DNA of 63,559 bases from a virus (taxonomy: Duplodnaviria > Caudoviricetes). The translations under genes were made by a program, and so were the position numbers. The stretch lies in the IMG/VR virus record IMGVR_UViG_3300036979_000143, positions 1-63,559 of that record. The stretch is one strand, 5' to 3'. Below the pieces are notes generated by a model that saw only the letters and a program-made list of their open reading frames with translations, was not told where the DNA came from and did no database searches. This document shows positions 762-59,724 of the stretch, in pieces (position 1 is the stretch's first letter; each line of letters opens with the position of its first letter).

Positions 762-765
762 GGTG

Positions 766-34257: not shown

Positions 34258-34654
34258 GCTTTCTGATAAATGGCAAACACACGCTTGCCATATTCAGAGT
34301 GTTTACTAGCAGGGATTCTATGCTGTTTGCACCACGCAACAAAATCTTTGCGGCACATCATTTGTTGAACCATATTCATTAGTTCCAGATTATGCAGAGG
34401 ATGATGAAGGAGATGAACGCTTCAACTAACAGGATCTGAAGCACGTTTGCAAAAAGGTCTTTCATTTTATTTATTTGTGGCAGGGACGCTTGGTGCCAAG
34501 ATAGACATGGATAACGCCACGAACCCTTTCACCGATAATTTGCCCTTTGGAATTAACCAGAGTTTTGAATTTTTTGGAGGCAAGGAATTCGTCACGATTT
34601 GCAGTTGTCATTTTATTTATTTTTGTTTGGGTTTCTTAACGCAGTCAATCAAAC

Positions 34655-34677
34655 CTCCGATTGTCCTACAAGGAAAG
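34655..34677 (-). promoter_or_regulatory. Repeated early promoter motif (first of the early region)
   Basis: ctccgattgtcctacaaggaaag flanked by A/T tracts. Confidence 0.65.
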
Positions 34678-34717
34678 AAAAAAAATGCACTTTTTTCATT
34701 CTAAAGAGTAAAAAACT

Positions 34718-35410
34718 TTAAAAAGAACGCTTTTCCCATGCCTCGCGAGCGTGTTCCACGGAAATCGTCGGCTTCCCGATGCGATCGTTCACATCGTTAT
34801 GGAGATGAACGCTCCACGCAAACAAATCTTGCCAAACCGGGGGATTCTCCGAAACGTATTTTCGGAAATGTTCAGCGCATGGGCAGTCTCCAAAATTGAG
34901 TGCAGAAGCCCATTGCTCAAACCATATCGTATCATCTGTTCCTTTGTGGCGTAGTGCAAATAGATGCAACTCTGCCCAATAGCGAGAAATATTCAAGGGA
35001 GTGATTTGATCGGATGGTTTTGTTGCGTGAGCGCGATCAACTTCATTGGCTGAGTTTTCCACCCAACGCTGATGCCTATCCCAATCTATTCCCAAGTGCT
35101 TGCATACTTCCATTTCAATCCTCATCGCGAGAGCGTGTTCCCGGCGATATGGTGCGTTCTTATTGTCTCCCGGCTCGTCTAGTTCTGGGTTGGCAATATC
35201 CCAAGCAGAAACTTCTTCCTCGGTGATCCCTGCTTTTTTGCAGGCCCACGCCTCCACCATTTCGTGCAATGCTACTAGGAAGGCACTATCGTCCTGACCG
35301 CCATATTCAGGCACAAAGACTTGAAGTGTCCCGTCAGGAAGGAACCTCCAGTCTCCGCAAGTGCTGTATCGAATGGCGAACGGATCAACCGATTTAATCT
35401 CAATCTTCAT
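34718..35410 (-). CDS. Fusion: HExxE zincin-like domain + Erv1/Alr-type sulfhydryl oxidase domain
   Basis: N-terminal ALHEMVE...EH; C-terminal WAELH...CPCAEHFRKYVSENPP...WSVHLHNDVNDRIGKP matches the Erv/Alr signature. Confidence 0.8.
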   Translation of the reverse strand: MKIEIKSVDPFAIRYSTCGDWRFLPDGTLQVFVPEYGGQDDSAFLVALHEMVEAWACKKAGITEEEVSAWDIANPELDEPGDNKNAPYRREHALAMRIEMEVCKHLGIDWDRHQRWVENSANEVDRAHATKPSDQITPLNISRYWAELHLFALRHKGTDDTIWFEQWASALNFGDCPCAEHFRKYVSENPPVWQDLFAWSVHLHNDVNDRIGKPTISVEHAREAWEKRSF

Positions 35411-36760: not shown

Positions 36761-39700
36761 TTAGGCTGTTTGAGTGTTTTGTTGCTGCGTTGTCATCGCT
36801 TGAGGTTGTCCTTTTTCAAGGATTGTTTTGCGCATTTCAGGAGTGATCTTAACTTTCCAGATTTTGCTTTGCTTCCCTGCTTCGCCACCAGAATTGATAT
36901 GATCCCAAGCAAGATCAGTTGCAAGCTCCTGAACCCTATTGAAGAATTCCATTTCATTTGCATCCTCATCTAACCCTTCTTGTTTAGCTTTTTCTTCGGC
37001 TTGCTCCATGAATAAATCCTGCAAGTGTTGAGGAAGATCAACTGGTTCCATGTGTTTGTGTGTTGAGGCAGAAGTAGTTTTTGATTGTTCGACTTTTCCT
37101 CCCCATTTTTTCACATACTTTTCAACTTCTTTTGGCAATATTTGGTCGTAGAATCCTTTCATTCCCTCGCCTCCTACCTTGATGTCTTGTCCCTCAAGAA
37201 CCTTGTCGGAAACTCCTTTTGGTGTTGGTTTTCCCCAATCCTGTTCAAGAAGTTTTTTTGCAGTCTCTTTACCGATGTAATCTTCTATTTCAGATTCATC
37301 TTTAATGTCTTTGTCCATTACTCTTCCGCCAGATTTACCCCAAGCAGAAAGTTGCAAAGATCCGTCTCCTTTCTTCAGCAAAACAATCTGTTCAACTTCT
37401 TTGCTCAAATCATAGCGTTCAGCTTGAACTTCTCCGCTTGTCCAACCGATCCAATCTTTTCCTTGGTCAACTGCATCACGCAAGGCTCTTTTGAAAAGCT
37501 GAATATTCCAATCCTTTCGGAAGGGTGCATCGGGAACGCTATTTGGCTTATCTTTATGTAGCTGGACAACTCTTTGAATTGCTTCTTCTGCTGATTTTGA
37601 TTTTGTATCGCCTGTCAAAAGAGCAACATTGTTTGCATCTCTTACTTGCCACGCTTGTCCGTCAATACCGGACGGACGCAATGTTGCAGTCCATCCTGTT
37701 GTGTCGATTGGTTTTTCCTCTCCTTTATACCCTTGTTTCCTTCCTGCTTGATGCCTGTCAGACTGAAGTTCCTCAATGAAAAGACCATTCCCATCTGCAT
37801 CAGAACGCTCATTCAGCCTCATGTGGGCTACATAGTTCGGGATGTCGGTAAAATGAGGGGACTTATATTTCGGTTTTGCACCTCCTGATGAAACTGAGTT
37901 GTTGGCGTGTCTTGCGTGGCCCTCTGCTATTTCTTGCGATCCATATGCTCCAACAATATCGCCATTAGAACCAATAACTTGCCACCCTTCACCTACGGGA
38001 TAAACAGCGTATTTCACGTTTGATAAATCAACATTATCGCTAGGCATCGTCATAACTACCTCGCGATAGTTTTTCCCTTCTGGCATCGTGTATTTTTGGA
38101 ATTTTGGATCTAGGTACAAGTTTCTACTTTCCTCTTTAAGTTTTAGGATTTCATCAGAACGATCAAAAAGCCTTTTATATTCTTCCTCATATTTTTTGGC
38201 GGCATCATAATTTCCGTCTTTACTTGCTTGTGATGATTTTTCTGACAATTCAGTTCTTTTCTTCATGTTTTCGATGCCTTCCAATCTCAAAGCCTCATAC
38301 TCATCCCTAGCTTTTCTCGCAGAAGCCTCGCCTCGCTCAACATCCTTGAACTGAATCTGGCCTTCACTCTTCAAATAATCAAGAACCTCTTGTTTCGTGA
38401 CATTTTTCTTGCCTTCTAGGAATCCTTCAAGATTAGACCATTTTATCTCATCCGGCTTCACTCCTGATCCTTTAGCGGGATCAACAATAGCCATGATTTG
38501 CTGAACTGATGCTTTATTAGGCATCTTTTCGTCTATGGTTTTTTGCAACTGCGAGTAGAATCCAGCTTCCGAAGTAGGATATTTTTGAGCAAATTCAGGA
38601 GAGAAATTTGCCCTCATCGGTTGTAATTCACCAATAGGAGGGAATGGGGAACTGATGCTTGTATCTGAAACTAACTGTTTCCATTTTCCATTTTTGTCTT
38701 TATATTCCAACAAATTAGGAGGGATGTTCCCTCTTCCTTGAAGTAAAACTTCCCCTGTTCCTTCATCAAACTGAATTCCTTGTTCATTTTCAGGATATTT
38801 TCCAAACAAATCTATAAGTTTTTGCTTATTTATTCTAAAAAGATTTCCAGAGTCTAGTGAAGAATAGTATTCTGTATTTTCAGGAGTATTTCCCATATAA
38901 ACCCCTTCTCCAGAATAACCTTCTTCAGAAGGTCTAATTCCTTCCTTTATGAAATCTTTTGGATTTGCGTCTGTTAAATGATAAACATAAGGGTCCGTTG
39001 TCCCAAATGTTTGTTTTTCTCCTGTTTTTAACACTTCTATCTGATTAGTATCAAAAACCAAATAAGAATCATTTCCTTCATTTTCAATTTGGTTTTTGTA
39101 AATTAAACCATCGTACCCTTCTTTTTTGGCTTTTGAAATTTCTTCTTTCCAATCGTTGATTACATCACGAACACGTTTGAAGTTTCCTACAAGATTCGCT
39201 TTTGTATAATTGCCTATACTTTCAATTTTTTCAGTAGAATCAATTCCGTATTGTTTGTTTATTGTTTGATTTGCGTTTAGTTCTGCCTGTTTTTTTGTCC
39301 GAAACCCGGAATCTGTAAAATCTCTGCTTTCTTGGGTTTCTGTTGCCCAATGCCAATTTCCTGAATCATCTTTATATGTTTCATACTCTGTTTTTGCTTT
39401 TTTTCTTTCTTCTGCGGATGTTTTTGTTCCAAAATGAATTCCTCCTTCAGTGTTTGCCGGTTTTTGAACATTTGCATCATACGAACCATAATGCCAAACT
39501 GGTCCTATTTTCAGTTTGTTGCCATCAACAATCTCAACTGATACAGGAGCTTCAGGGGTGAATTGCGCTCCAAATGACTGTTTTTCTCCGCTGGGAGCGA
39601 AAGACGACCCCATCTGACCGGAATCCTTGCCTTGAATGGCATTTATTCCTCTCAGGATAGGGCTAGAAATCGTCGGAGCGGTTTCCCTTGAAGGTTTTGC

Positions 39701-42700
39701 TGGTTTCATCTCCAAAGCAGCCTCCGGGTCGATTTGGGCCTCTGGCATGGCATTGAAAATGGATTTGCCGTATTCAAAAGGATACTTTGTTCCGTTGCTT
39801 TGCTCGTAATGAGAATATGCGTCAAGCCTCCTACTGCGGATCAAAGACATCGGATCACTACTACGGAAATCGGCTTTCTCGTCCTTTGTCATCTGCGAAC
39901 GCTTGATTTTAGGAAGCGTTATGACAACCGGGTTGAAGTTCATCGGCCTAGCCTCGTCTTTCGGTGGCTTTACGTTCAAAAATGCGTCATAAACATAACG
40001 CATCTGCATCGCCTTGTTGAAATCCTCATCAAGATTGCGATGGCGAGTCTGCGCGGCTTGCTCGGAAAGAGGGTCCATCTCGGCAGGATCATTCTTCCAG
40101 TTCTCCATGTATTTGCTTAAACCTTTAAGGAACTCATTCGGATCGTAGCTCCATGGTTTCAACACTTCTGGCTGATACTTAAGAATCAGGTTAGCTTTGT
40201 CCCTTGCTCCGGTTACGTTGAACTCATTAACCAAGAAATGACCATCTTTGCTGAATGACAAAGAGATAGGTTTGCTTTGAACGATCTTCGGTGAGAACGG
40301 CTTATATTTTCCAGTAGAAGAAAGCCTGCTTGCGTACATTCCGATCGTTGGCGTTCCATCTCCACGATCTATAATGTCGCGAGCCATAGCGATTTTCTCT
40401 TTAATAGAAAGGGGAACGATGCTTTCTGGCAGATTTAGAATCTCTGTTATCTGATTTTGCGTAAGTTTCCCTCGGAGGCTTAAATTGTCCGCAGAGAATG
40501 GCCGCATCGCTTCAGGATTGTCCTGATCGTGCTTCAGGATGGCATCACGAATCATCTGCGACCTAGCCTGAATCAACGCTTTGTATGCGTTTTTATCCCT
40601 TTCTACTGGCTTGCCTTTCTCGTCATAAACGATTTGTGAAACAACCCTCATCGACCCGCCTTCAGGGATCATTTGAGTCGTTAGCTCCTCTGGCATCTGG
40701 CCGTAGCCTTTAACGCGAACAGGCTTGCGCTCTGCATCGTCACTAGATTTCCATTCGCCTTCAGCGGCTTCCGGGTTGGTAATCAGGTGGCGATAGACAA
40801 CATTTCCGTCTGCATCAACCACTTCACCGATCTTGGTTGTTTTGAACTTCCCGTCATCTTTGGCAAACTCTTCAGCCAATGCCCGGTTGTTTTTGATGTC
40901 GTTCGGCTTGATTTCAGGAGCAATGTCAGATCCGTCATGCGGCGTCAGAACTCCGTTGAACTCGTTTAGGGCGATGTTGTTCCTGCGAACATGAGCAAGC
41001 ATTTCTGGCGTAAATGTCGCGCCAGTAAGAGCAGAAGTGATAAATGGATCTTTGACTCCCAAGAACGATCCTTTTTTGATTACTTTTGCGAGTCGGTTGT
41101 TTTCATTGCTGACCAATGCCCAATCAATGATGTTTTGCAATGGGCTATTGAGCCTAGCCATACCTTTGCCTCCAACTTGATTCGCGCCAAGCCCAGCGGC
41201 ATTTGCCTCGGCAAGAATTTCTTCCTGCATATACGAAGCTATTTTCAAGGGATCGTAATCTTGTTTCTGGTAGTCCCAAAGATTGTTGTTTTTCGCGAAC
41301 TCCTCTTTTTCTGGTGCGGTAATTCTAGTTTTAAGATAGTTTTTTAGGAACATCTCGTTAAGCATCTCCGTGGAGTACGCTCCTTCACTTCCGGGAACAA
41401 CGCTTCCATCTGGAAGATAAACCTTTTTACCGAAAAGTTTCTCTCTCAATGGTTGGGTAACATCTCTGTATTCTTTGAAGCCTTGTGCAACATGATCTAT
41501 TTCATGGGTGAGAACCCATGCCAAAGGCCTGCCAGTAACGGACTGCTTATTGCGGATTTTGTCCATGTTGATGACGGCTGTATCGCGCATCGGGTCAAAT
41601 ATGACTCCTTGCGCTTTCGGGCCTGCCATTTCTCCGCTTGGGAGTTTAACCTGACCGCTTGCGGAGTATCTGGCTCCTGCATTGTTGGCAAAGAACTGAG
41701 CAGTTGCCTTATCCATACCGGGATTCACATCCATTAGTTTTTGAGTAATCTCATCTTTACTCATCAAGCGAATGTTAAAATTCCTGCCGGGAGAAATAGG
41801 CCCATTGATGCGCCGATCAGCACTGGAAAGCACACCAATCACCTGACGGGTGTATTCCTGACGAGTGGCAACGGATGCCCTCTGGTTCATTTCGTAAATG
41901 CCTTTGTTTTTGGTAACTTCGTCTGCCGCTTTCAGGGTTTCTGGCGATTCGGGATTCTTGCTGTGCAATTCAGCGTAATTTTGCGTTGATTCGTCTAATT
42001 TTGCTTTTGAATCAGCAATTACTTCATCCCAACTTGCGGCAGATTCTAGTTTTGCCCTGTCTCCTTCAGGCAAACGGCTCATTAGCTTGTAATTCTCGTA
42101 ATCCTTCTGTTTGCGGTAACGCTGTGCCTCATATGGGCTTTTGCCAGTAGCTTTAGTGATTGCTCCGTGCGAGTAAGCAAAAATTGCTCCGTTTGCCAAA
42201 GTTTCGCCAACTCCTTCTGCGTCTTGATCGTTATACACTCCCAAAGCGATTCCAAGTGGAACTGTTTCAGCACCAGTCCTTATGAAATCTTTGATGTTAT
42301 TAGCAGTCCAGTTGATTACTGACTCATTCAGGAATGGCAACTTGCGAGACGGGAAATAGCTTATTGCTTTCGTGGCAAGCGAAGATTCAGGAGTTGCCAT
42401 CGCAACCGAGAACATGTCCCCCGGTGCGCCAGCCAGCGTTCTCCTAGCCTTTGCCAGATCAGCAACTACACGAGGAGCATACAGCGTAGATGCAAGCCCA
42501 ATTCCTTTGAGAATGCCACCAACCCTGTCCTCTGGTTCGGCAAGAGCACCAACACCAGCACCTCCTAGCTCCAAACTGGCAAGCGGAAGGTATGCTTTTA
42601 CCATCGGCCTGTAAAACTCTGGAACAGATTCAAGAGCCTGTTCTAGTTTTTGACCACCTTTGCTGATAGAATCAGCAACAATTTGCGCGTATTTTTCAAC

Positions 42701-43891
42701 AGGGCCAATGTCTCCTTTCTTTTTGGCTCTATCTGCGAATGCTAGTGCTTCCTTTGATTGTGTTGCCGCATTGGCAGCGGACTCCTCTGCGGCTGTTGGT
42801 GCCTTGAACCCTTTGCCTGCAAATTTAATAACTTTTCCTGCTCCCTCAAATGCTTTAATCGCCATCGAGAACTCATTACCAGCAGGCACGACCAACCCTG
42901 TCGCGAACAATTCCTCTTCAGTAGGAGCAGTTTTATTCTGATAAGCTATAGCTCGGTTGATGTAGTCTTGAGAAAGATGTTCGTCTTGCTGGTTTTTATA
43001 TTGAACAGCCTGCTCCCTATTCCAATCCGGGTGTTTGGCTAGGATTTGATCTACGCTTGCAGACAAATTACTCACTATGGCTCGTAAAGCGTTCTGCGTC
43101 ACAGGCCTGCTTGCGTCTATAGCCCTAGCGGCAACATCTGGATTCTCCTCGTCGTATTGAGCGTTGTGTGTGTTGAAATACTCGCGATCACGAAAGTTCT
43201 TCTTCGCCTCCTCCTCCGTTTTTAGTCCCATAGACACAAGGGCTTGGTCAGCGGAAGTCAACCCTCGCTCTGCGATGTTTTTGCCTTGCCTCCACAAATG
43301 TTCAAACGTATTGGCAACTGATTCAGGGAATGCTTTGATTGCCCTGATAGCTTTCTCTTCGCCACCCGGTGCCGCAGTCATTCTGGCAGGATTTACGGAC
43401 GCAACATCGGAAATTATTTGACCAAATCCAGTGGCGATAGATCCGACCATCGCTGGCGCACCTCCAACGGCAGACTCTATTGCTTTGCTGGCAGCTTCGT
43501 TTAATGATTGATTTTTTCTGTGAGCATAAAGGTAATCAATTTGCTCTGGCGTTTTCTCAAACCATTGGGGAAATTTCTTGATCTCTTCAGGGTCAGTTTC
43601 TGATTTAGCAACATTCGCTAGTTCTTCGGAAACATTTTGAAACCCTGACTGCTGAAGCGTCTCGCCAATAGAAGGTGGTTTCTTTTCGGCTACCTCTGGA
43701 GTGCCTTTTTGTGCAGATTGAATGAGTTGATCCATCGCCTGCAAATCAGGGTCATTCACTTGGCTTAATTCTGAAGCTGGTTTTACAATCGGTTCTTTTT
43801 TTGTTCCAGTTGCAGAAGATGCAGACGACAAAAGTTGATCCATGAAAGCAAGATCATCTTCCTTTTGTGGGTTATTAATTCCTAGAGCCAT
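36761..43891 (-). CDS. Giant polyvalent virion/ejection protein (HExxH domain, two ART-like domains, conserved C-terminal domain)
   Basis: THEIDH...EEILAE; HYGS..GIHFGT..GYDGLIY..YLVF; YHLT..GVYM..GEV; IEELQSD..PDAPF..GMKGFYD. Confidence 0.75.
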   Translation of the reverse strand: MALGINNPQKEDDLAFMDQLLSSASSATGTKKEPIVKPASELSQVNDPDLQAMDQLIQSAQKGTPEVAEKKPPSIGETLQQSGFQNVSEELANVAKSETDPEEIKKFPQWFEKTPEQIDYLYAHRKNQSLNEAASKAIESAVGGAPAMVGSIATGFGQIISDVASVNPARMTAAPGGEEKAIRAIKAFPESVANTFEHLWRQGKNIAERGLTSADQALVSMGLKTEEEAKKNFRDREYFNTHNAQYDEENPDVAARAIDASRPVTQNALRAIVSNLSASVDQILAKHPDWNREQAVQYKNQQDEHLSQDYINRAIAYQNKTAPTEEELFATGLVVPAGNEFSMAIKAFEGAGKVIKFAGKGFKAPTAAEESAANAATQSKEALAFADRAKKKGDIGPVEKYAQIVADSISKGGQKLEQALESVPEFYRPMVKAYLPLASLELGGAGVGALAEPEDRVGGILKGIGLASTLYAPRVVADLAKARRTLAGAPGDMFSVAMATPESSLATKAISYFPSRKLPFLNESVINWTANNIKDFIRTGAETVPLGIALGVYNDQDAEGVGETLANGAIFAYSHGAITKATGKSPYEAQRYRKQKDYENYKLMSRLPEGDRAKLESAASWDEVIADSKAKLDESTQNYAELHSKNPESPETLKAADEVTKNKGIYEMNQRASVATRQEYTRQVIGVLSSADRRINGPISPGRNFNIRLMSKDEITQKLMDVNPGMDKATAQFFANNAGARYSASGQVKLPSGEMAGPKAQGVIFDPMRDTAVINMDKIRNKQSVTGRPLAWVLTHEIDHVAQGFKEYRDVTQPLREKLFGKKVYLPDGSVVPGSEGAYSTEMLNEMFLKNYLKTRITAPEKEEFAKNNNLWDYQKQDYDPLKIASYMQEEILAEANAAGLGANQVGGKGMARLNSPLQNIIDWALVSNENNRLAKVIKKGSFLGVKDPFITSALTGATFTPEMLAHVRRNNIALNEFNGVLTPHDGSDIAPEIKPNDIKNNRALAEEFAKDDGKFKTTKIGEVVDADGNVVYRHLITNPEAAEGEWKSSDDAERKPVRVKGYGQMPEELTTQMIPEGGSMRVVSQIVYDEKGKPVERDKNAYKALIQARSQMIRDAILKHDQDNPEAMRPFSADNLSLRGKLTQNQITEILNLPESIVPLSIKEKIAMARDIIDRGDGTPTIGMYASRLSSTGKYKPFSPKIVQSKPISLSFSKDGHFLVNEFNVTGARDKANLILKYQPEVLKPWSYDPNEFLKGLSKYMENWKNDPAEMDPLSEQAAQTRHRNLDEDFNKAMQMRYVYDAFLNVKPPKDEARPMNFNPVVITLPKIKRSQMTKDEKADFRSSDPMSLIRSRRLDAYSHYEQSNGTKYPFEYGKSIFNAMPEAQIDPEAALEMKPAKPSRETAPTISSPILRGINAIQGKDSGQMGSSFAPSGEKQSFGAQFTPEAPVSVEIVDGNKLKIGPVWHYGSYDANVQKPANTEGGIHFGTKTSAEERKKAKTEYETYKDDSGNWHWATETQESRDFTDSGFRTKKQAELNANQTINKQYGIDSTEKIESIGNYTKANLVGNFKRVRDVINDWKEEISKAKKEGYDGLIYKNQIENEGNDSYLVFDTNQIEVLKTGEKQTFGTTDPYVYHLTDANPKDFIKEGIRPSEEGYSGEGVYMGNTPENTEYYSSLDSGNLFRINKQKLIDLFGKYPENEQGIQFDEGTGEVLLQGRGNIPPNLLEYKDKNGKWKQLVSDTSISSPFPPIGELQPMRANFSPEFAQKYPTSEAGFYSQLQKTIDEKMPNKASVQQIMAIVDPAKGSGVKPDEIKWSNLEGFLEGKKNVTKQEVLDYLKSEGQIQFKDVERGEASARKARDEYEALRLEGIENMKKRTELSEKSSQASKDGNYDAAKKYEEEYKRLFDRSDEILKLKEESRNLYLDPKFQKYTMPEGKNYREVVMTMPSDNVDLSNVKYAVYPVGEGWQVIGSNGDIVGAYGSQEIAEGHARHANNSVSSGGAKPKYKSPHFTDIPNYVAHMRLNERSDADGNGLFIEELQSDRHQAGRKQGYKGEEKPIDTTGWTATLRPSGIDGQAWQVRDANNVALLTGDTKSKSAEEAIQRVVQLHKDKPNSVPDAPFRKDWNIQLFKRALRDAVDQGKDWIGWTSGEVQAERYDLSKEVEQIVLLKKGDGSLQLSAWGKSGGRVMDKDIKDESEIEDYIGKETAKKLLEQDWGKPTPKGVSDKVLEGQDIKVGGEGMKGFYDQILPKEVEKYVKKWGGKVEQSKTTSASTHKHMEPVDLPQHLQDLFMEQAEEKAKQEGLDEDANEMEFFNRVQELATDLAWDHINSGGEAGKQSKIWKVKITPEMRKTILEKGQPQAMTTQQQNTQTA

Positions 43892-43896
43892 GCTAA

Positions 43897-45768
43897 TTAT
43901 CTCGGAACCAATTCAAATTGCGCGGAATCTCCTCCACCAAATCCCTCTGGAATGTTGATGTCGCGAATTTTTTTCATTCCAAGTAACGAACTATCTACAT
44001 CAGCCTCGTCCAAAAGTCTATCATGATATATTTTAGCTCTTTCTTTCAACGCCTGAATTTTTTTGTCTATAATATCAATTTCTTCAGGGCTGGATTGTGA
44101 TTTTTGAGCAATTAAAGCTGCCATTTCTTCCCTGCTTGATTTGATCCTTTCAAGAGCATCAGATTTTAGCATTACTTCAGTTTCTGGCGCGTGCCCTCCT
44201 GTGAAGTAATAAACTCCTGCTTTCTCCTCTGGAATTCCGGAAGACTTGAGGCGTTGTTTCGTAGCGGTTACTACCTTGTTCGCTGAATCAGCACCAATGT
44301 TGTAGTTTTCCGTCAACTCGCGAAGCATTTGATCGCGAACTGATTGCGGCAAGAATCCTCCACCCTCAATTTTTCCTCTGGTTTTTGTAAGGTACTTGTC
44401 TTTCAGGCTCATTGCATTCTCAATAAGATGAGCCTGTGAAACTGTGATTCTGCCACCGCTTTCGGCGCGACCGAAAGAGTCCAACATACTGACATCTGCG
44501 GCTCCTGACGCCTCGGGATGCAGTTTTGCGCTCTCGTAAGCAGAAAGGAACGGGGGAAGAAGGTCTTTCACTCCTCCCTTGCTCAAGAAATTGGCAACTG
44601 GTTTTTGCAACCCAAAAGCCCTAGCCTCCCTTAAAATAGCATTCTCAGTTCTGCTTTCAGCTTGTGATTTGGCGGTCATTTCCCTTGTTTTCTGCGCCTC
44701 CTCTCTCGTTTTTTGGGCTTCTTCCTTTGCGGCGCGCGCGGCAGGGTCGCTTTGCTTCCAAGGAATGATAAAAAGGCCAGATTTGTCAGGCTTCGGAGTG
44801 CCTTCCGCATACCAAATAGGATTACCCGACTGAGACTCAATATATTTCCTAGCTTCCTCGTATGAACGGAAAGCAGCTTTAGGAACACCGAATTTTGTTG
44901 GTTCGGCAGCAGGAGCAGAAACTGGAGGAATAGACTTCAAGGGCATCTCTGCCAATTGCTGTTGGATTTGAGTCATTTGCTCATTTGAAACGCCACCCAA
45001 CGTAGAAAGTGAAGCCGGGGGCTTTGCTTTTGCGAAACTTGGAATCGTTGCAGGAATGTCAATCGGTGAGGCTCCAGCAGATGTGCTTGATCCTAGATTT
45101 GCACGAACGCTCGACCAATCGACATTTGCCAGAGCATTTACAGCATTCTGGCCTAGCGGAGTTGGCGCAGTTTCCAAAGGAACAGGATAATTCAGATCCC
45201 CAAGAATCCTGTCTGTCTGGATCAGGTTGCTATCATTATTCAAATCTTCTGGAAGATTGATAGTTTCAAACGTATTTCCACCAACAGGAGCGTGACGCTC
45301 GTACCTATCTTGTGTTGGAAGCGTAGAGCTTGGTGTTTTAAGCGGTTGCGTAGCGGACAATGGCTGCTCCGTGTCCGTTGTTTCAGATGAGTCTCCACCC
45401 CAATTGGCAGGGATGACATTCTTTATCCTCTCCTGCGACAACCTTTCCAACTCCTTGTGGTGGCGCATCGTTTCAACCAATGTAGCATTCTTCTCCTCTT
45501 TAGCGGCTTTTAGTTTAATTACCTCTTTGGCAAGATCCCTCTGATCTTTCAGGTCTTGAAGTTTCTGCTCCCTAGCGGCTTTTACGCCAGTAAGAATGCC
45601 AGAAGCAATGTCTTTTGTTCCTGAAGCAATCCCTTGAGCCACATATTCCGGGTGCGTGTTCGCAACCACAAAAGGCGAGATCGGCCTAATTTGCGAAACA
45701 TCCAGCCCGCCAAGGGAAATTGGCTGAACACTAGCAAGCGGAGAAAATGGTTGGAATGAGAATGCCAT
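43897..45768 (-). CDS. Internal virion/ejection protein
   Basis: Helical and low-complexity; lies in the core-protein block. Confidence 0.6.
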   Translation of the reverse strand: MAFSFQPFSPLASVQPISLGGLDVSQIRPISPFVVANTHPEYVAQGIASGTKDIASGILTGVKAAREQKLQDLKDQRDLAKEVIKLKAAKEEKNATLVETMRHHKELERLSQERIKNVIPANWGGDSSETTDTEQPLSATQPLKTPSSTLPTQDRYERHAPVGGNTFETINLPEDLNNDSNLIQTDRILGDLNYPVPLETAPTPLGQNAVNALANVDWSSVRANLGSSTSAGASPIDIPATIPSFAKAKPPASLSTLGGVSNEQMTQIQQQLAEMPLKSIPPVSAPAAEPTKFGVPKAAFRSYEEARKYIESQSGNPIWYAEGTPKPDKSGLFIIPWKQSDPAARAAKEEAQKTREEAQKTREMTAKSQAESRTENAILREARAFGLQKPVANFLSKGGVKDLLPPFLSAYESAKLHPEASGAADVSMLDSFGRAESGGRITVSQAHLIENAMSLKDKYLTKTRGKIEGGGFLPQSVRDQMLRELTENYNIGADSANKVVTATKQRLKSSGIPEEKAGVYYFTGGHAPETEVMLKSDALERIKSSREEMAALIAQKSQSSPEEIDIIDKKIQALKERAKIYHDRLLDEADVDSSLLGMKKIRDINIPEGFGGGDSAQFELVPR

Positions 45769-45771
45769 GTG

Positions 45772-47619
45772 TTAGTTGCCGCCAAATTGTAATCCATCTA
45801 CCTTTGGAGGCAAGAAAGAAGAAGTTACCTTGTTTGCTGGTTCAATTGGTTCAGGAGTCTGCGGTTTCGCCATCGCTGGAGCCTTAATTGCGGCAGGAGC
45901 AGCAGGAGTTTTTTGAATCGCTTTTTCTGCAAATCCGCCAGCATACCCAGTAGGATTTCCTCTTTTTGCCCTCATTTGAGCCAACCTTTCAGCATCCATT
46001 GTTTTCTGCCTGCTTTCGTGGGCAGCAAATTGCCTCCTAGCCAAAGAGTTATTCCCTGAAGCAGCTTTCAATGCAGCTTCGATAGCCGCATCATATTCAA
46101 ATTGCTGTGAAGCGCGAAGTCTTGCTTCTGCGGCAGCTTTTGCATCTGCTATTCTTTTGGCTTCTATTTCAGCATTGGTTTTCGTTTGCTTATCTAGTTG
46201 CCATTGGTTTTGTTTTCTTTGTTTTTCTAGTTCCTCTTCGGCATTTTTATTTTGAACTTCCAAAGCTAGATCACCTTGTCTTTCTGCTTCTTTTAGTACC
46301 TTTGTGTATGCGTATTTTTGCCGTTCTAAATCCTGTGTTACTTTTTTGTCTATGTTCTCTTGAGTAATTGGAACCAATGGGGTGATCTCTTTAATATCAT
46401 TCTGATATACACGCAAATCAGGCCCAATTTGATTATCAATAGTATACTCTGGTCTTGTTGTTTGAGATGCCATCCCAGAATAGATGTTTCTCACCAGCGA
46501 CCCAGTAATTAACTCCTGAACTTGTTTTGCTTGATCTGCAAGATTTTGATTTATTATTGATGAATTAGTAATAAAAGATGGGGATGTATTATAATTTACA
46601 ATCGGAGTAATATTCGTCGCGTTGTCTGAAGTCCTAGTTCCTCCTGTTTGTGTTGCGACAGAAATCTTTGGGCCTTGTTGGGTGCTTTCAACGAAATATG
46701 ATCCAACATCATTAGTGATAACTGTTTTTGTTCCGCCTACATCTTGCCCCGGAGCAAGAGCTTTGATTATTGTAGGCTTGCTATATGCAGCATCAGGGTC
46801 TGTGATTCCATATTTTTCTTTAACGTATGAATTGGCTGCTATTGCATGCTGTGTTTCTGCTTTTCTGGTAGCTTCCGCATCTGCTGGCGCATAATATGCT
46901 GATGATTGAGATTTTATCTCATCAGCTAACTTTTGTTGATAATTTCTGTCTGAATCTTTTACGCTGACTAATGCGGATTGCCTTCTTTCTGGTGTTGACA
47001 GTGCGTAAGATACTGCATTTTGAACTTGTGTTTGTTGTGTTGGTTTTAGCGAAAAATACGCTTGCGCCGACTCATACTGCAACTTGGGCAATCCAGATTG
47101 ACTTCGATATGTTTTTCCAGTTTCTACGTCACGATAATATTTTTCAGCAGCTTTTTGCTGATCTGGTGTCATCATTGCAAAATTCAATGCCTCCTGCGGC
47201 ACTGGTACTGCTTTTGTTAAATTTCCCTGTGAATCTCTCTCCATACGCAGAGTCGGCATCACCTCATCTGGGATCGAAATTGAAGAATAGGTAAAGGGAT
47301 TGCTGGTATTGCGAGTGTCTCTTATTTTTAAGAATAGGTCATTGCGTAATCTTTCTTGCTCCCAATCCTGAAATGCGTTTGACCCTAGAATTTTTCCTGA
47401 ATTTTGGTTTTGTTGTTGTCGTTGGGCTTTGCGTGCAGCAGCTTCAGCATCAAGTTTTTGTTGTTCCTGTTGTTGCCTCTGTTCAATTTCTTCAGGAGAT
47501 GCATTAGCATAGAAAGCCTGTTCTTCTTCAAACTGCTTTTCTAGCAATGCGTTTTCTTCATTCAAAAGTCGTTCAAGTTCCGCCTCTTGTTCAGCAGATA
47601 TTTTAGATGAGTTAATCAT
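45772..47619 (-). CDS. Q/A-rich internal virion protein
   Basis: Coiled-coil character; C-terminal PKVDGLQFGGN. Confidence 0.55.
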   Translation of the reverse strand: MINSSKISAEQEAELERLLNEENALLEKQFEEEQAFYANASPEEIEQRQQQEQQKLDAEAAARKAQRQQQNQNSGKILGSNAFQDWEQERLRNDLFLKIRDTRNTSNPFTYSSISIPDEVMPTLRMERDSQGNLTKAVPVPQEALNFAMMTPDQQKAAEKYYRDVETGKTYRSQSGLPKLQYESAQAYFSLKPTQQTQVQNAVSYALSTPERRQSALVSVKDSDRNYQQKLADEIKSQSSAYYAPADAEATRKAETQHAIAANSYVKEKYGITDPDAAYSKPTIIKALAPGQDVGGTKTVITNDVGSYFVESTQQGPKISVATQTGGTRTSDNATNITPIVNYNTSPSFITNSSIINQNLADQAKQVQELITGSLVRNIYSGMASQTTRPEYTIDNQIGPDLRVYQNDIKEITPLVPITQENIDKKVTQDLERQKYAYTKVLKEAERQGDLALEVQNKNAEEELEKQRKQNQWQLDKQTKTNAEIEAKRIADAKAAAEARLRASQQFEYDAAIEAALKAASGNNSLARRQFAAHESRQKTMDAERLAQMRAKRGNPTGYAGGFAEKAIQKTPAAPAAIKAPAMAKPQTPEPIEPANKVTSSFLPPKVDGLQFGGN

Positions 47620-47639
47620 ATGATGAATTCGACAATCTT

Positions 47640-48380
47640 TTAAAGACCACCAAACTTCAAATCATCAACTTTCGGTGAAGTGAATTGTTGTTGCGTGTTT
47701 CCCAACTGGTTCAACAGGGCTTGTTGCGCTGACGCAGATTTCATGGCAGGGTTTTGCTGTTGCATCGCCTGATTGTAAGCAGATGGAGACATACCTGAAG
47801 ATGCCGCACGAAGATTTTGATTTTTCTGCTGCTCTGCTTGTCCGATGTCAAACGTAGGCCCAGTGTAACTCTTCCCTGCCGCTGCTGACTCTTTAGCATA
47901 TTGGTTTGCAGAAGCGGCATCCATCGCTTTTTGCATTGCATCGGAAGAATACATTTGCTGTTGAGCAGCTTGCTCGCTTTGCGTTGCGGCTTGCCCGGCT
48001 TGTTTTACCGCAGATTGATACGCTGCTTGATCTTGAGCAAGTTTTGTTGCCGCAGCACGATCAGCCGCAGCTTGAATTTCGCGTTCTTGCTGTTTTGTTG
48101 AATAATCTTGCGACAGTTTTAATTGCTTGGTTGTAAATTCGTCTTGGAATTTCCTTTGCAATTCAGCTTGGGCTGCTTGAAAAGCCTGTTGCTGTTCAGC
48201 GGCACGCTGATTGTATGCAAGTTGAGCAGCAGCTTGTTCTTTGCCGTATGCAAGTGCCCTGTCTTGATATGATGATTGCGCCTGCATCATCGCTGCGTTT
48301 TGAGCGTTAATTGCGGCGATCAGTTGAGAAGAGTTATCCCTAGGTGCAGGGGAACTCATGATAGTCGGGCTTCCTCCCAT
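47640..48380 (-). CDS. Q/A-rich internal virion protein
   Basis: MGGSPT N-terminus; C-terminal PKVDDLKFGGL. Confidence 0.6.
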   Translation of the reverse strand: MGGSPTIMSSPAPRDNSSQLIAAINAQNAAMMQAQSSYQDRALAYGKEQAAAQLAYNQRAAEQQQAFQAAQAELQRKFQDEFTTKQLKLSQDYSTKQQEREIQAAADRAAATKLAQDQAAYQSAVKQAGQAATQSEQAAQQQMYSSDAMQKAMDAASANQYAKESAAAGKSYTGPTFDIGQAEQQKNQNLRAASSGMSPSAYNQAMQQQNPAMKSASAQQALLNQLGNTQQQFTSPKVDDLKFGGL

Positions 48381-48422
48381 AATAATAGTGTGTTAGTTGT
48401 TTGTGTTGTTGTTGTTTAATTT

Positions 48423-49784
48423 TTAACCGCCAAATAAGCCTCGTAATGCTCCGGGTTTAGATGCACCGCCAGCTAATCCTCCGCCAGCGGCTGCTCCTGC
48501 TGCGGTTCCAACTCCGGGCATAAGCATACTTCCAAGTGCAGCACCTCCAATTGTTCCTGCCGCGCCGAGCAACGCTCCTGTGGTCGCATTTTGGTTGGCA
48601 GCGTTTTGTGCGGAGATTTGCGAGAGCGCATTTTGGTAGTCTCTCCATTCTTGCCTGTTTGCCTGATTCAGTGAAAGTGCGCCACTCATAGAGCGGTTCA
48701 GGAAATCAGACATTGATTGAAAGTTTCCTGTTTGCTGGCCTGAAAGCGAATTGATATTACCCATTTGCGTTTGACCAAGTGCGTTCAGAGAACCAAGAAC
48801 ATCTTCCCTCATCCTATTGGCTCCTGCAAATTGCAGATTTCCGAAATTAGACATATTTTGGGCCTGTTGAGCAGAAAGGCCAGCAAGGTTCTGATTTTGC
48901 ATTTGCGAGAGTTCCCCAACATTAGCCAACCCAACTCTGCCTACATTTTCACCAAGACCTCTTGCGGCTTGCAGGATTCCCTGTTGCCATTGATTCATTC
49001 TGTTTAGGTTCTGCTGTTCAACTTGCTGTTGCTGTGCAATTAGGGCTTGAGGATCTAGCGTTGTGATCTGCGGAGTGAGTTTCAGGTACTGCTCCCGGAG
49101 AGACAGATTCTCTAGGTCTCTTTTGCGTTTTTGCTCCAAAGACTGATCCGCGAACGAGGCTTCAGACAAAGTGCCTGAACCAAGGCCAGATTGAAGATTG
49201 CGGACGATTCCAGACTTAATAAGTTGGTTCATCCATTCCTTGTCATAATCTGCGCTAGTGTATTTATCTACATCGGAAGCCAATTCCCTCCTCATTTTAG
49301 CGGCTTCCGGGTTCAGAATTTCTTCAGCCTCGCGTTGCCTTTGAACATTCCCGATGGAGAACTTTTTTGCTTCCTCTGCGGCTTTATTCGCGTCGAAACG
49401 CTCCATAGTTGGAGCAAATTGAGCCTCTCGGAGTAGTTGCTGATTTTGTAGGTCTAGCAGGCTAGATTGAACAGCGTCCCTAGTTTTAAGTTGACCTGAT
49501 TGGATTGCCCCCTGTGTATCTAAAAATCCCAACTGGCCTTTAGCTAGGCTTTGCAAATACCCCGTCTCAATGTCCGACTGAGTTTTTTGAAGCCCTGTTA
49601 GGGCATCACTATATGCTTTAAATAGGTCTGTTTCTATGGCTCCTCTGCCCTGTTGAAACGCAAGATCACTCTTTAGTTTTTGTTGGTAAAGATTACCTTG
49701 AGCTAAAATATTAGCTGCTTGGGCATCGTAGGCTGCTTGGTTCCCATCAGGGGCAGAAGGGACATATGTAGGTGAACTTCCCAT
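48423..49784 (-). CDS. Internal virion/DNA-pilot-like protein
   Basis: Q/N-rich helices, C-terminal Gly-zipper hydrophobic segment. Confidence 0.65.
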   Translation of the reverse strand: MGSSPTYVPSAPDGNQAAYDAQAANILAQGNLYQQKLKSDLAFQQGRGAIETDLFKAYSDALTGLQKTQSDIETGYLQSLAKGQLGFLDTQGAIQSGQLKTRDAVQSSLLDLQNQQLLREAQFAPTMERFDANKAAEEAKKFSIGNVQRQREAEEILNPEAAKMRRELASDVDKYTSADYDKEWMNQLIKSGIVRNLQSGLGSGTLSEASFADQSLEQKRKRDLENLSLREQYLKLTPQITTLDPQALIAQQQQVEQQNLNRMNQWQQGILQAARGLGENVGRVGLANVGELSQMQNQNLAGLSAQQAQNMSNFGNLQFAGANRMREDVLGSLNALGQTQMGNINSLSGQQTGNFQSMSDFLNRSMSGALSLNQANRQEWRDYQNALSQISAQNAANQNATTGALLGAAGTIGGAALGSMLMPGVGTAAGAAAGGGLAGGASKPGALRGLFGG

Positions 49785-50169: not shown

Positions 50170-50415
50170 TTAGGTTAGGGTCGTAACAACCCCGGTTTGT
50201 TGATTAGTTCTGTATCCAATTGCTTGTTCAGAATTGATTTCTGCCCTAGTTGAGGATGTTCCACAAACTACACACGGCAGGCAAGTAGAGTTTGAAGGAA
50301 TATTGTAAATAGGGATGCTTGAATACAATGGGATCACGCCATCGTTCCCGTAGGGGCTGATGTATTTATTTGGGAATTCTGTGACAGGAGTTGCCGCTGT
50401 TAGAATAGAAGGCAT
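50170..50415 (-). CDS. Small Cys-containing protein
   Basis: TCLPCVVC; tail module. Confidence 0.55.
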   Translation of the reverse strand: MPSILTAATPVTEFPNKYISPYGNDGVIPLYSSIPIYNIPSNSTCLPCVVCGTSSTRAEINSEQAIGYRTNQQTGVVTTLT

Positions 50416-50417
50416 AT

Positions 50418-52556
50418 TTAGCAGGGGTTTGTTTTCCTGTAGAGGTTGGCGGCAGTTGTGGCTTCTTGCGTAGCTATCAGTGACGCTTGCGTAACCGCAT
50501 CACTCTCCGAAACGTAACTTATGTAGCTTGCCGTTGCCGTGGAAGAAACAGCAGGGACAGTTGAGCCTGCATTGCAACGAAGCGTGACTGTCCTTGTCTG
50601 CGTGCTTTTCCAAGAGTTTACGCCTTCAGGTGCTTTTTCTACAGGAGCAGTTTGTAGGTTGAATGTTTTAGAATCCCCATTCTCACCAACCGCGCAATAT
50701 ACTGTTTCGTTTTCACTCTTTCTGCCAATAGATTTATCGGGCCAAGGATCTAGATACATCCTTACTGAATCGACTCCCAAAGCACCGCACCACTCAACGA
50801 GAAAACTGAAGCACTTATCTACATCATTTGAGTCATCTGATTCGCATGAGGATATGTCATTTTTACCTCCGATGTTTTCAGTAATAAGCCTGCGAGCCTG
50901 CGTCTGAAGGATGCCTAAATCTTCTATTTCGCCCTGCGCTAAAGTATTTTCATACTGGTACTTTTCTGTAACCGCCAAAATCCTTTTATCCAGTATGCTT
51001 TGGTATTTTCCCTTTGTCCCCCGGAAAGATACTTTTACATCCACTGTGCCAGCAATTTGACTGCAATCGACTTCCCCGTAAACGAGTTGCTTCAAATCCA
51101 TCGTGTCACCTAAAAGGCCAGTCTCAAATTGGCAGTAAATCCTATTTACTCGCTCTGTTGTGCTGCCGTCTTGGTTAATCTCAAAATACTTGTCCTCCCT
51201 TTCTGGAGTGAATGCTTCCCAAAGGTGATTGTAAGATCCATCTGAAGATGGCGAGTAATCGACTGAAAACGCAAATAGCTTTGGTTGATTCTCAATCATT
51301 CCAGTAGCCCACTCTACTGGACGGATGCCAGTCCAAACACCAGACCAAGCTGGTATTTTGTTTTGGTTCCACTCGGATGCTACTGCGTAATCCAAAACCA
51401 TCGTTACGCTGTTCAGTTTTTCAAGATATGGGATTGAATACAGGATGTAGTTCTCAAAAGAAGTAGCGCATATGCCAGTGTAATCAGACGGCATTAGCCT
51501 TTTAGCTTTCGCCATCTCAATGTCCTTGAAAAGGATCTGGCTAGACAAGTATGAGGCAGATGCAACGTCAACGCTTACTAATCCTCCTTGCGAGTACCAC
51601 CACATCTGCCCAGCTTGAAACGCGATGCTTTTCCCGGCAACGCAGCCAATATGAGGGAAAATATTGCTCTGGAAATTTGCAGTATTTGCCCATGCGTTTC
51701 GGTCTAGAATGCCGCTGGCAATAGAATACGTCGATTGATCGGTAAAAACATAAAGGCTAGTCTCGTTGTTTTGACCCACATAATCCTGAAGCGCAGTGAT
51801 TTTTCTAGGAACGCTGAAATCACCCCTTCCGCTTCCTGTTTTTCTTTCCTCCCAGCCAATAGGGTTAGCCAAATCAGATGCAGAAATAATGTTCCCGTTT
51901 GCTACCCAAAGCCTGTTTCCAGAATATGCCATCCAGTAACCGATTGGCATGTTTTCTGCCAAGTTCCCGGTGTCGTTTGACCCGTCCCAATAGCAAGGCG
52001 TGTTAGACCCGTCTTGGATGATAATTAGCCTGTGTGAAGGGGTTACAGCAACTCCTCCGCCAGTGCTGATTGTAGCAGACCTAGTAGCTATAACAAAATT
52101 GATTTTATCTGCGTCCGGGTTCATTTCGATCCCGGTCAACCGATGATCTTCCCATGACGTAGGTTGAACTAATGGGAATGGGAGGAAATATACTTTCCCG
52201 TCCACAGCAAAAACAACATAGGGAAGCTCTGCGGCTTCTACTGCGTTTCCATTGTAATCGTAAATTGTGTTTCGGTAAGTCTCTCCTGAACCACCATACC
52301 CAGTAATTACCAAAGATGATTGCGCTTGCTTATTTGCGTTAAAAACAACTCCACCTTGGAAATTGCCAGAAGGCAAAGACAACTTCATTGTGTACCCCGG
52401 CCTTGTTTGAACCATTCCGCCACGACAAGTTACGTTGACACCCCATTTATATTGATTTTCAGGCAAAGCCCAAGGGTTGCGAACGCTGTTTGCCCCCATG
52501 AACCACGCAGCGGATGTTTTTTCCTGCCTGCCTGAAGTGATGTTTGGGCTTTTCAT
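50418..52556 (-). CDS. Tail nozzle / DNA-stabilisation protein (T7 gp12/P22 gp10-like)
   Basis: NVTCRGGMVQTRPG N-terminus, AYSGNRLWVA, beta-propeller-like pattern; follows the adaptor. Confidence 0.7.
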   Translation of the reverse strand: MKSPNITSGRQEKTSAAWFMGANSVRNPWALPENQYKWGVNVTCRGGMVQTRPGYTMKLSLPSGNFQGGVVFNANKQAQSSLVITGYGGSGETYRNTIYDYNGNAVEAAELPYVVFAVDGKVYFLPFPLVQPTSWEDHRLTGIEMNPDADKINFVIATRSATISTGGGVAVTPSHRLIIIQDGSNTPCYWDGSNDTGNLAENMPIGYWMAYSGNRLWVANGNIISASDLANPIGWEERKTGSGRGDFSVPRKITALQDYVGQNNETSLYVFTDQSTYSIASGILDRNAWANTANFQSNIFPHIGCVAGKSIAFQAGQMWWYSQGGLVSVDVASASYLSSQILFKDIEMAKAKRLMPSDYTGICATSFENYILYSIPYLEKLNSVTMVLDYAVASEWNQNKIPAWSGVWTGIRPVEWATGMIENQPKLFAFSVDYSPSSDGSYNHLWEAFTPEREDKYFEINQDGSTTERVNRIYCQFETGLLGDTMDLKQLVYGEVDCSQIAGTVDVKVSFRGTKGKYQSILDKRILAVTEKYQYENTLAQGEIEDLGILQTQARRLITENIGGKNDISSCESDDSNDVDKCFSFLVEWCGALGVDSVRMYLDPWPDKSIGRKSENETVYCAVGENGDSKTFNLQTAPVEKAPEGVNSWKSTQTRTVTLRCNAGSTVPAVSSTATASYISYVSESDAVTQASLIATQEATTAANLYRKTNPC

Positions 52557-59208: not shown

Positions 59209-59724
59209 TTAAGAAATTTCAGTAACATTAAGAAACCCTGCCCCTGTCGTCATCCCTTGAAACGCAAACAAAGCACCAGAGATTGATGCTGTGTCTCCTG
59301 CTTCCAACGCTATAGAATAATTGCTAGCCGAAGCGATTCCTGAACCGAACAGGATGTAATAGGTTGATCCGTCAATACTGTTCGCAAACAATACCGCTTT
59401 TCTATTTTGGTTTGAGGACAAGATTTGCGCGGATGCGTTTACCGAAGAGAAAGTTGTTACAGATGCCGCTGATGCAGAATTCGGCAGTCCATCCTCATAA
59501 TAAATAGTCAGCTTGTCGCTTGCTCCGGGCGCAGTAGCAAGAGTGATAACAGAGTTTGCAGCTTGCGTGTAGGCGGTTGGCGCAGGGCCAGAAATCGAAT
59601 AATGAACAACTCCAGTTGTGGCGTTTGCAACTAGGAGTATTTGACTTAATTGGACGTTCACCCCAGTTAGCGTTACCGCTGCCCCTGCGATGGAAATGTT
59701 GCTAGGTTTGACGAGTTGTTTCAT
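59209..59724 (-). CDS. Tail-associated structural protein
   Basis: Beta-rich; coupled to the fibre gene. Confidence 0.6.
   Translation of the reverse strand: MKQLVKPSNISIAGAAVTLTGVNVQLSQILLVANATTGVVHYSISGPAPTAYTQAANSVITLATAPGASDKLTIYYEDGLPNSASAASVTTFSSVNASAQILSSNQNRKAVLFANSIDGSTYYILFGSGIASASNYSIALEAGDTASISGALFAFQGMTTGAGFLNVTEIS

Follow-up and report, generated by a model that had tools for sequence, protein, structure and literature searches.

A CxC-type Erv/ALR homologue, probably a flavin-dependent thiol oxidase, encoded as an accessory gene by a tailed phage

The DNA analysed here, the whole of which is called the window, is the complete IMG/VR virus record IMGVR_UViG_3300036979_000143 (63,559 bp), and this work concerns one of its minus-strand genes, an open reading frame (ORF) for a 230-aa protein that closes a long run of packaging and structural genes. 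The protein is composed of an N-terminal domain, a flexible linker and a C-terminal domain resembling the Erv/ALR sulfhydryl oxidases, which are textbook enzymes of eukaryotes and of their large DNA viruses. An earlier reading of the window, made from its letters only (the sequence-only reading), had taken the gene for an Erv/ALR-type oxidase of a tailed phage with CxC in place of CxxC, and had proposed that the phage oxidises and cross-links its own virion with it in the bacterial cytoplasm. Coordinates of the features are collected in Table 1.

Sequence comparison and predicted fold both show the C-terminal domain to be a true homologue of the Erv/ALR oxidases. The C-terminal residues quoted in the sequence-only reading (...RYWAELHLFALRH...DCPCAEHFRKYVSENPPVWQDLFAWSVHLHNDVNDRIGKPTISVEHAREAWEKRSF) are exactly those encoded, its interval 34718-34993 corresponding to residues ~140-230, and the profile and structure search against the Evr1_Alr family that it had suggested as a check upholds the homology, with CxC replacing CxxC. 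In fact, the Pfam profile Evr1_Alr (PF04777) matches residues 144-225 over profile positions 3-92 of 93 with an E-value of 6.8e-9 and 36.4 bits, above the curated cut-off of 27.6, and a six-frame scan of the record against the same profile gives 39.1 bits. A phmmer search against PDB sequences returned 14 matches, all of them (14/14) Erv/ALR-type oxidases, the best being pB119L of African swine fever virus (ASFV; 3gwl, 2.9e-5); homologues of the whole 230-aa protein number 84 at E<=1e-3. An AlphaFold2 (AF2) model built on 26 homologues has two domains and a mean predicted local distance difference test score (pLDDT) of 86.9, the linker residues 131-139 falling below 50, and the helices of the C-terminal domain span residues 138-154, 161-170, 178-188, 193-211 and 218-226. 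Erv-family structures occupy ranks 1-23 of the Foldseek matches in PDB, with 3gwl at the top (template modelling (TM) score 0.73 on the target, 23% identity) and Erv1, ALR and Erv2 (2hj3, 3o55, 4e0h, 1oqc, 1jra) below it, while the best BFVD matches of the domain are giant-virus sulfhydryl oxidases.

The residues W145, E147, L148, H149, C176, P177, C178 and H181 are invariant in 26/26 homologues, down to 40% identity, as are W199, H204, N205, V207, N208, R210 and G212. They include the flavin-binding signature of the family, whose flavin adenine dinucleotide (FAD)-contacting positions we take to be those named in the family literature. FAD binding and oxidase chemistry are suggested by this homology, and it is fairly probable that the protein is, as an enzyme, a flavin-dependent thiol oxidase.

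C176 and C178 align with the cysteines of the CEEC motif of ALR, one residue being deleted relative to ALR. The exchange of CxxC for CxC, pointed out in the sequence-only reading, also proved constant: besides the 26 homologues, CPC is present in 53/53 two-domain IMG/VR loci, equivalent to 43 distinct full-length sequences (43/43), among the best 80 of 220 IMG/VR stretches related to the Erv protein. Twelve other loci encode shorter proteins of 129-188 aa with CDC, CGC, CQC or CNC, and 14 encode proteins of 92-126 aa with canonical CxxC. In a search of 26 records, L077 lying outside it, capsid genes of nucleocytoplasmic large DNA viruses (NCLDV) were found in nine, all of which (9/9) are CxxC loci, and in none of the 12 CxC records; by these capsid genes, the stand-alone canonical-CxxC proteins were rejected as phage genes, their loci being giant-virus fragments. 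An Erv-like protein of 225 aa in a provirus-flagged record of 38.6 kb (L058:9611-10288) has the spacing C-x6-C (CKAELGAC), neither CxC nor CxxC.

The CxC records of ~30-41 kb (L067-L080, e.g. L075:9878-10282) form a second, siphovirus-like phage group. One of them is complete (41,328 bp) and shows the order tape-measure gene, three ORFs, Erv gene, metallophosphoesterase gene; in the group, the Erv gene stands at the end of the tail genes and is followed by a metallophosphoesterase or an exonuclease gene. The H, N, V, N and G and both W of the flavin signature are invariant across phage groups A and B. A CxC-type profile built from both phage groups was run against 1.84 billion cluster representatives and gave 4967 protein matches at E<=1e-3, of which 981 reached <=1e-10; among the best 150 representatives, whose ranking favours CxC as the query profile is itself CxC-type, the motif is CxC in 125, with 13 different residues in the middle, CxxC in 22 and neither of these in three. 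Because so many middle residues occur in these 125 of 150, the CxC spacing itself is under selection, and because the second phage group has CxC too, CxC-type Erv domains are a broad natural group and not a local oddity. All ten clusters of this search that were looked up are metagenomic (10/10), the only informative name being 'ERV1/ALR-related protein' in a Pirellula metagenome-assembled genome (MAG). A scan of GTDB species genomes with two peptide patterns yielded four weak Erv-domain matches, all on MAG contigs; three carry CGC and come from Pirellula MAGs (L082-L084), the fourth carries CxxC and comes from a Bacteroidetes MAG, and none of the four gave a prophage or a host call. A word-based search for shorter Erv-only proteins gave no candidate. 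A FastTree phylogeny of 171 Erv domains (78 columns) requires 15 changes, at least three of them forced by well-supported branches (shuffled mean 27.8), and its resolution is too poor to decide whether CxC had a single origin. The phage Erv clade and a giant-virus Erv group share 43% identity over 86 aa.

The N-terminal domain belongs to phrog_7302 (E 4.9e-6), a family without known function, matched no Pfam family, and has unnamed viral clusters as its nearest neighbours in the Atlas. It contains a conserved cluster, H49-E50-x2-E53-x3-C57 ... H92 ... E99, whose residues are kept in two-domain and stand-alone proteins, respectively, as follows: H49 in 35/43 and 8/8, E53 in 41/43 and 8/8, C57 in 41/43 and 7/8, H92 in 29/43 and 8/8, E99 in 40/43 and 8/8. 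The family pattern can be written H-E-x2-E-x3-C ... EPGD ... APY-x2-(Q/E)-H ... E, and some two-domain proteins have the EPGD segment deleted and H49 lost. The stand-alone forms are proteins of 126-137 aa (P0058, P0063, P0075-P0084); for P0058 no IMG/VR locus was found. Fold matches of the domain are weak and zincin-like (abylysin, SprT, IrrE-N; Foldseek E 0.3-2, probability <=0.8), and the domain does not qualify as a zincin-like metallopeptidase: it has HExxE and not HExxH, H49 is missing in 8/43 two-domain proteins, the Foldseek matches are weak and Pfam gives none.

A two-copy model with FAD predicts a dimer, with an interface score (ipSAE) of 0.79 against 0.00 for the best control. In calibration, 20 of the 30 same-chain pairs with solved structures reached the mark, as did one of the 23 single chains; the Erv part of this pass may stem from likeness to known solved Erv dimers. 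Three runs share at least 69% of contacts with a partner pLDDT of at least 85, and the predicted interface is composed of residues 1-7, 40-59 and 90-107 of the N-terminal domain and 142-170 of the Erv domain. The model thus supports a homodimer to whose interface the two domains both contribute.

The window is the genome of a tailed phage, as had been supposed: among its genes are those for a phrog_2 terminase, RecT, a Cas4-like nuclease and a DnaC-like protein, and for the capsid candidate the Atlas gives a similarity to N4-type capsid clusters, a lead only. The sequence has a GC content of 45%, and the minus strand carries 74 of its 86 greedy ORFs. An exact direct repeat of 127 bp is present at the record termini (1-127 and 63433-63559); we rejected it as a biological direct terminal repeat, its length fitting, in our interpretation, the overlap of a circular assembly, so that the record ends are arbitrary and the two ORFs open at the ends (3..887 and 63249..63557) are probably one gene. 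Followed round the circle, the minus-strand order runs from the terminase, the tRNAs, the ParB_N and Tet/JBP genes and a portal-like 803-aa ORF to the capsid candidate, then through the tail and fibre ORFs, a Cys-free block with a giant ORF and the ATP-grasp gene to the Erv gene, and, after a gap of ~340 nt and small ORFs, to RecT, the Cas4-like nuclease and the DnaC-like protein. The placement of the Erv gene at the end of the structural block was therefore correctly read, and since the gene is the last of that run it is probably expressed late, as judged solely from gene order. Sigma-70-like matches in the gap are weak, their count in a consensus scan not exceeding that of shuffles; the gap is likely to be a boundary of transcription units.

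Table 1. Features of the window discussed in the text, with the basis of each assignment or a remark on position
Feature	Position	Strand	Basis or remark
Whole ORF, 230 aa: N-terminal domain, flexible linker, C-terminal Erv/ALR-like domain	34718..35410	-	ORF list
Predicted Erv/ALR-like FAD-binding helical domain, aa 144-225	34736..34981	-	PF04777, Foldseek
Cys176-Pro177-Cys178, at the family's redox-active CxxC site, just before helix 178-188	34877..34885	-	alignment
H204-N-D-V-N208, flavin-binding signature with W145, H149, W199, R210, G212	34787..34801	-	invariant columns
N-terminal domain, aa 1-130, uncharacterised phage family	35021..35410	-	phrog_7302
Region without long minus-strand ORF, ~340 nt, 3' of the Erv stop	34380..34717	.	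two minus-strand sigma-70-like matches
ATP-grasp enzyme, PurD/glycinamide ribonucleotide (GAR)-synthetase-like architecture, 438 aa	35400..36716	-	predicted fold
Giant ORF, 2376 aa, 0 Cys, constant upstream landmark of the Erv module	36761..43891	-	
Four further Cys-free ORFs, 623, 615, 246 and 453 aa	43897..49784	-	
Tail protein of 712 aa (12 Cys) and adjacent 81-aa CxxCxxC protein, possible clients	50170..52556	-	weak phrog_511 match
Major-capsid candidate, 402 aa, 6 Cys, possible client	1216..2424	-	Atlas lead only
S-adenosylmethionine (SAM) methyltransferase	2645-3247	-	
192-aa ORF, 9 Cys including C118-x2-C121 and C131-x2-C134	10566-11144	-	between portal-like ORF and 321-aa ORF
Tet/JBP 2-oxoglutarate-Fe(II) (2OG-Fe(II)) oxygenase	12149-12991	-	
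ParB_N protein	12994-13647	-	
tRNA Trp-CCA	13857-13932	-	beside terminase gene
tRNA Gln-TTG	13985-14058	-	beside terminase gene
Terminase	14064..15944	-	phrog_2
tRNA Thr-TGT	16216-16287	-	other flank of terminase gene

Most structural ORFs stay without a name in the Pfam and PHROGs scans. When searched by tblastn against deposited phages, the portal-like ORF had no match and the terminase only two weak ones; as the Erv queries (see below) had no phage match either, there is no cultured relative and no host assignment. The Tet/JBP oxygenase, preceded by a 321-aa ORF (11187-12152), may form a DNA-modification set with the ParB_N protein and the SAM methyltransferase, and the relative G027 is without Tet/JBP. 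Being O2-dependent, this oxygenase fits an oxic host. The 192-aa ORF looks like a zinc-binding protein, and a 75-aa ORF (62618-62845, minus strand) has 8 Cys (10.7%), its homologue in G027 having 10 Cys in 59 aa.

The stop of the ATP-grasp ORF overlaps the Erv start by 11 nt. This ORF has no sequence match in Pfam, PHROG or PDB, and its assignment comes from an AF2 model (pLDDT 84.6, predicted TM score (pTM) 0.87) that Foldseek matches to 3mjf (E 3.5e-20) and 2yw2 (TM 0.70). The gene is optional, being present in 28/53 loci, while in 11 loci Erv follows the giant gene directly; G027 keeps it beside a gene for the N-terminal domain only. The position of Erv after the giant ORF is conserved across loci L001-L053, where the full-length homologues of the giant ORF measure 2033-3231 aa; in whole relatives they reach lengths of 2241-4142 aa. 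PDB contains no sequence relative of the giant ORF or of the capsid candidate, and the Atlas lead for the capsid gave rise to no more than the speculation that the giant ORF could be an N4-like virion RNA polymerase.

Among the known systems with which the protein can be compared, ALR and Erv1 have a structural CX16C disulfide, the extra domain of QSOX is thioredoxin-like, the poxvirus E10R pathway has dedicated relay proteins, and Erv2 has a C-terminal CGC shuttle that is not a flavin-proximal active site. ASFV pB119L (3GWL), the best PDB match in both sequence and fold, is likewise virus-encoded and shares W..LH and HN.VN..G(K); it differs by its CxxC (CTRC), its ~119 aa without an extra domain and its origin in a giant virus of animals, whereas the phage protein has CPC and an added 130-aa N-terminal domain and comes from a bacterial virus. 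The FAD domain is also homologous to that of human ALR and of yeast and plant Erv1 (3O55, 3MBG, 1OQC, 4E0H, 2HJ3), and a homodimer is predicted in the phage as well; in contrast to their active-site CxxC and distal shuttle disulfide, the phage C-terminal domain has only the two CPC cysteines. Mia40, the partner of Erv1, has CPC as its redox-active site according to PMC4019985, the same tripeptide as in the phage, where it sits in the oxidase itself. QSOX and Mimivirus R596 (3TD7; for R596, a passage of PMC3509050) also tether an Erv domain to a non-Erv domain, but that of R596 is C-terminal and unrelated, while that of the phage is N-terminal, uncharacterised and only weakly zincin-like in fold. 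The poxvirus E10R-A2.5L-G4L pathway is similar in concept, as a virus-encoded flavin oxidase makes disulfides in a reducing cytoplasm; an excerpt of PMC10598087 gives E10R a role in morphogenesis and places it in another Pfam family, PF04805, and, unlike this pathway, the phage and seven relatives had no thioredoxin or glutaredoxin family member, the two families searched. Cys-x-Cys disulfides are known to be redox-active and more oxidising than typical CxxC pairs. Passages of PMC3173608 give values for a CGC peptide (-167 mV), CsgC (-139 mV) and YphP (-130 mV), within a range of -130 to -200 mV, but in none of these does the pair form the flavin-proximal active site of an Erv-type fold.

The account that we favour, as a whole with modest confidence, is that the 230-aa protein is an accessory two-domain CxC-type flavin thiol oxidase, likely late and homodimeric, with virion proteins as clients that it helps to mature. 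It builds on what sequences and models show, namely the homology and the fold, the conserved motifs, the accessory distribution of the gene and the predicted dimer, and FAD binding, oxidase chemistry, timing and clients are inferred. The C-terminal domain would bind FAD within its helical bundle, and the Cys176-Pro-Cys178 pair, sitting where the CxxC of the family faces the flavin, would cycle between a dithiol and a strained, strongly oxidising CxC disulfide, passing electrons from substrate thiols to FAD and finally to O2. The homodimer would be the working form, with both domains at the interface, and the His/Glu/Cys cluster of the N-terminal domain, joined by the flexible linker, would probably serve dimerisation and client or metal binding. 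Made late, the enzyme would form disulfides in the infected, otherwise reducing cytoplasm; the strained proximal disulfide could act on its clients without an intermediate, in keeping with the finding of no relay protein in the two families searched. The most likely clients would be the capsid candidate, the 712-aa tail protein and the 81-aa CxxCxxC protein. A role on these conserved-Cys virion proteins of the phage itself is put forward tentatively and, since most relatives are without Erv, it could only be that of a helper speeding or securing oxidation and not an essential assembly step.

Several observations weigh against this account, beginning with the active site: the CxxC next to the flavin that defines the family is replaced by CPC, so that the protein is best filed as a divergent CxC-type homologue and not as an ordinary Erv oxidase, and in the literature searched we found no assay of any CxC Erv enzyme. 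The late timing, moreover, is read from gene order only. The distribution of the gene points the same way. With the 712-aa tail protein as lineage marker, 197 relatives were recognised in IMG/VR, 80 were fetched and the 25 longer ones were searched for PF04777, which was found in six of these records and in only one of the seven that are at least 90% complete; the Erv domain is thus dispensable in the lineage. G027 (60.5 kb, tail protein 97% identical) has the N-terminal domain only, as a 137-aa ORF, and G032, G034, G036, G039 and G040 have neither domain. On a tail-protein tree of 13 scored records, Erv presence needs at least three gains or losses, two of them forced by well-supported branches. 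In Erv-less relatives, the slot after the giant gene is occupied by unrelated small genes, a family scan of ten of these ORFs giving DUF932, ERF and a weak HSDR_N and no replacement oxidoreductase; such a variable slot is typical of accessory host-interaction genes.

The cysteines of the candidate clients do not follow the gene either. Between this genome and the seven near-complete relatives (8 genomes), the cysteines of this genome are kept throughout at 6/6 positions in the 402-aa capsid candidate, 3/3 in the 81-aa CxxCxxC protein, 8/9 in the 192-aa ORF and 7/12 in the 712-aa tail protein, and the conserved cysteines of the candidate clients are identical with and without Erv; those that vary go with the clade instead of the presence of Erv, since none of them is lost in G027. 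If the gene belonged to a viral pathway of the known kind, the oxidase would be expected wherever Cys-bearing virion proteins are conserved, whereas here the cysteines are kept regardless of it. As far as sequence can tell, Erv-less relatives are equally Cys-bearing, which is one half of the outcome that the sequence-only reading had named as contradicting it, and its picture of a phage that needs Erv for cross-linking its virion is not supported. The same holds for a disulfide 'pathway' in the sense of several components: Thioredoxin (PF00085) and Glutaredoxin (PF00462), the only two families searched, are each found in 0/8 genomes.

The cysteine counts on which that picture was built are correct: the capsid candidate has six (positions 5, 78, 107, 353, 386 and 395), ORF 50418..52556 has 12, ORF 50170..50415 has CxxCxxC (C45-x2-C48-x2-C51) and ORF 59724..60503 begins with MSCGC. 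They are selective, because the putative structural ORFs are overall poorer in Cys than the rest of the genome (95 in 11,825 aa, 0.80%, versus 105 in 6,576 aa, 1.60%), and the assertion that the virion proteins carry many Cys is not supported. Five consecutive large ORFs (36761..49784) have no Cys in 4313 aa, with P ~1.7e-27 at the other-ORF frequency of 1.42%. The 31 giant-ORF homologues of the related loci together contain 19 Cys among 77,267 aa, and those of the seven whole relatives contain 0-1 each; Cys avoidance in this ORF is lineage-wide and independent of Erv presence, and the Cys-free proteins may be ejected or kept unfolded. The capsid candidate itself has no Pfam or PHROG match and is named after its Atlas similarity of 0.97 to Phage_capsid_3/4 and 'N4-gp56 family' clusters, which is a lead only.

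These results bear most heavily on the proposal of the sequence-only reading that Erv is required for capsid and tail disulfides, as in ASFV, poxviruses and baculoviruses. The late-block position, the invariant cysteines of the capsid candidate and tail proteins and the analogy with viral Erv enzymes (passages of PMC10598087 and PMC3509050) speak for an essential cross-linker of this kind; the five complete or near-complete relatives without the domain and the one with the N-terminal domain only, all with the same cysteines, the Cys-poor structural ORFs with their 4313 Cys-free aa and the missing partner proteins (thioredoxin and glutaredoxin) speak against it, and we consider it very improbable. 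A host-directed redox weapon would be easier to reconcile with the patchy, accessory distribution, repeatedly gained or lost, with the variable slot at a gene-block boundary where relatives hold unrelated small genes, with client cysteines unaffected by Erv absence and with the lack of a dedicated partner among the two families searched. Such an enzyme would oxidise host thiols (glutathione or another low-molecular-weight thiol, thioredoxin, Cys-dependent host or defence proteins) and make H2O2, aiding takeover, counter-defence or lysis timing instead of hardening the virion; in the CyDisCo system, Erv1p expressed in the cytoplasm of E. coli reportedly suffices for protein oxidation. However, two unrelated phage groups have the gene at the end of the tail or structural block, a position that would suit a role linked to the virion no less well, and on balance we regard this possibility as rather unlikely.

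The protein might also not make protein disulfides at all, the flavin/CxC domain acting with the N-terminal domain on a small molecule or in modifying nucleic acids, perhaps in concert with the ATP-grasp neighbour and the Tet/JBP-methyltransferase set, or the CxC binding a metal. The absence of the canonical CxxC, the metal-ligand-like conserved cluster of an N-terminal domain that also exists alone, its retention next to the ATP-grasp gene in the Erv-less G027, the overlap of the ATP-grasp gene with the Erv start and the presence of Tet_JBP, methyltransferase and ParB_N genes in the genome would agree with this. Yet at least 11 loci have no ATP-grasp gene next to Erv and no fixed gene set exists, as G029 has Erv and Tet/JBP without ATP-grasp and G027 has ATP-grasp without Tet/JBP or Erv; moreover, all residues of the thiol-oxidase flavin signature are kept. 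We therefore hold such a role to be improbable, and prefer the accessory thiol oxidase with a helper function on virion proteins.

In the full-text literature searched, with supplementary tables outside it, no report of an Erv-type oxidase in a bacteriophage was found, and the matching passages concern giant viruses or cite them. Two phage Erv queries gave no phage match by tblastn among 50,697 deposited phage records, the 230-aa protein having been searched whole and as its Erv domain alone; the only match was a Mollivirus-like giant-virus record. What appears to be new, on the evidence of sequence comparison and modelling, is thus a CxC-type, phage-borne branch of the Erv/ALR fold.

A wider view, which we advance with considerable doubt, is that the CxC Ervs are a large undescribed class of tailed-phage flavin thiol oxidases making disulfides in the reducing bacterial cytoplasm, with CxC as a relay-free adaptation and with gene exchange between phages and giant viruses. 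If this were true, they would be the bacterial-virus counterpart of the oxidative virion maturation of giant viruses; in its strained form, the CxC disulfide would serve to oxidise clients directly, with no relay protein needed, and the identity shared with the giant-virus Erv group would point to phage/giant-virus gene exchange. The presence and absence of Erv among near-identical phages offers a ready-made comparison for finding its clients. If the enzyme is active, the CxC pair could be a flavin-proximal redox centre of the Erv fold, bearing on how spacing tunes disulfide chemistry, compact oxidases of 90-230 aa might serve the production of disulfide-bonded proteins in bacteria, and phages could form disulfides in the bacterial cytoplasm by themselves.

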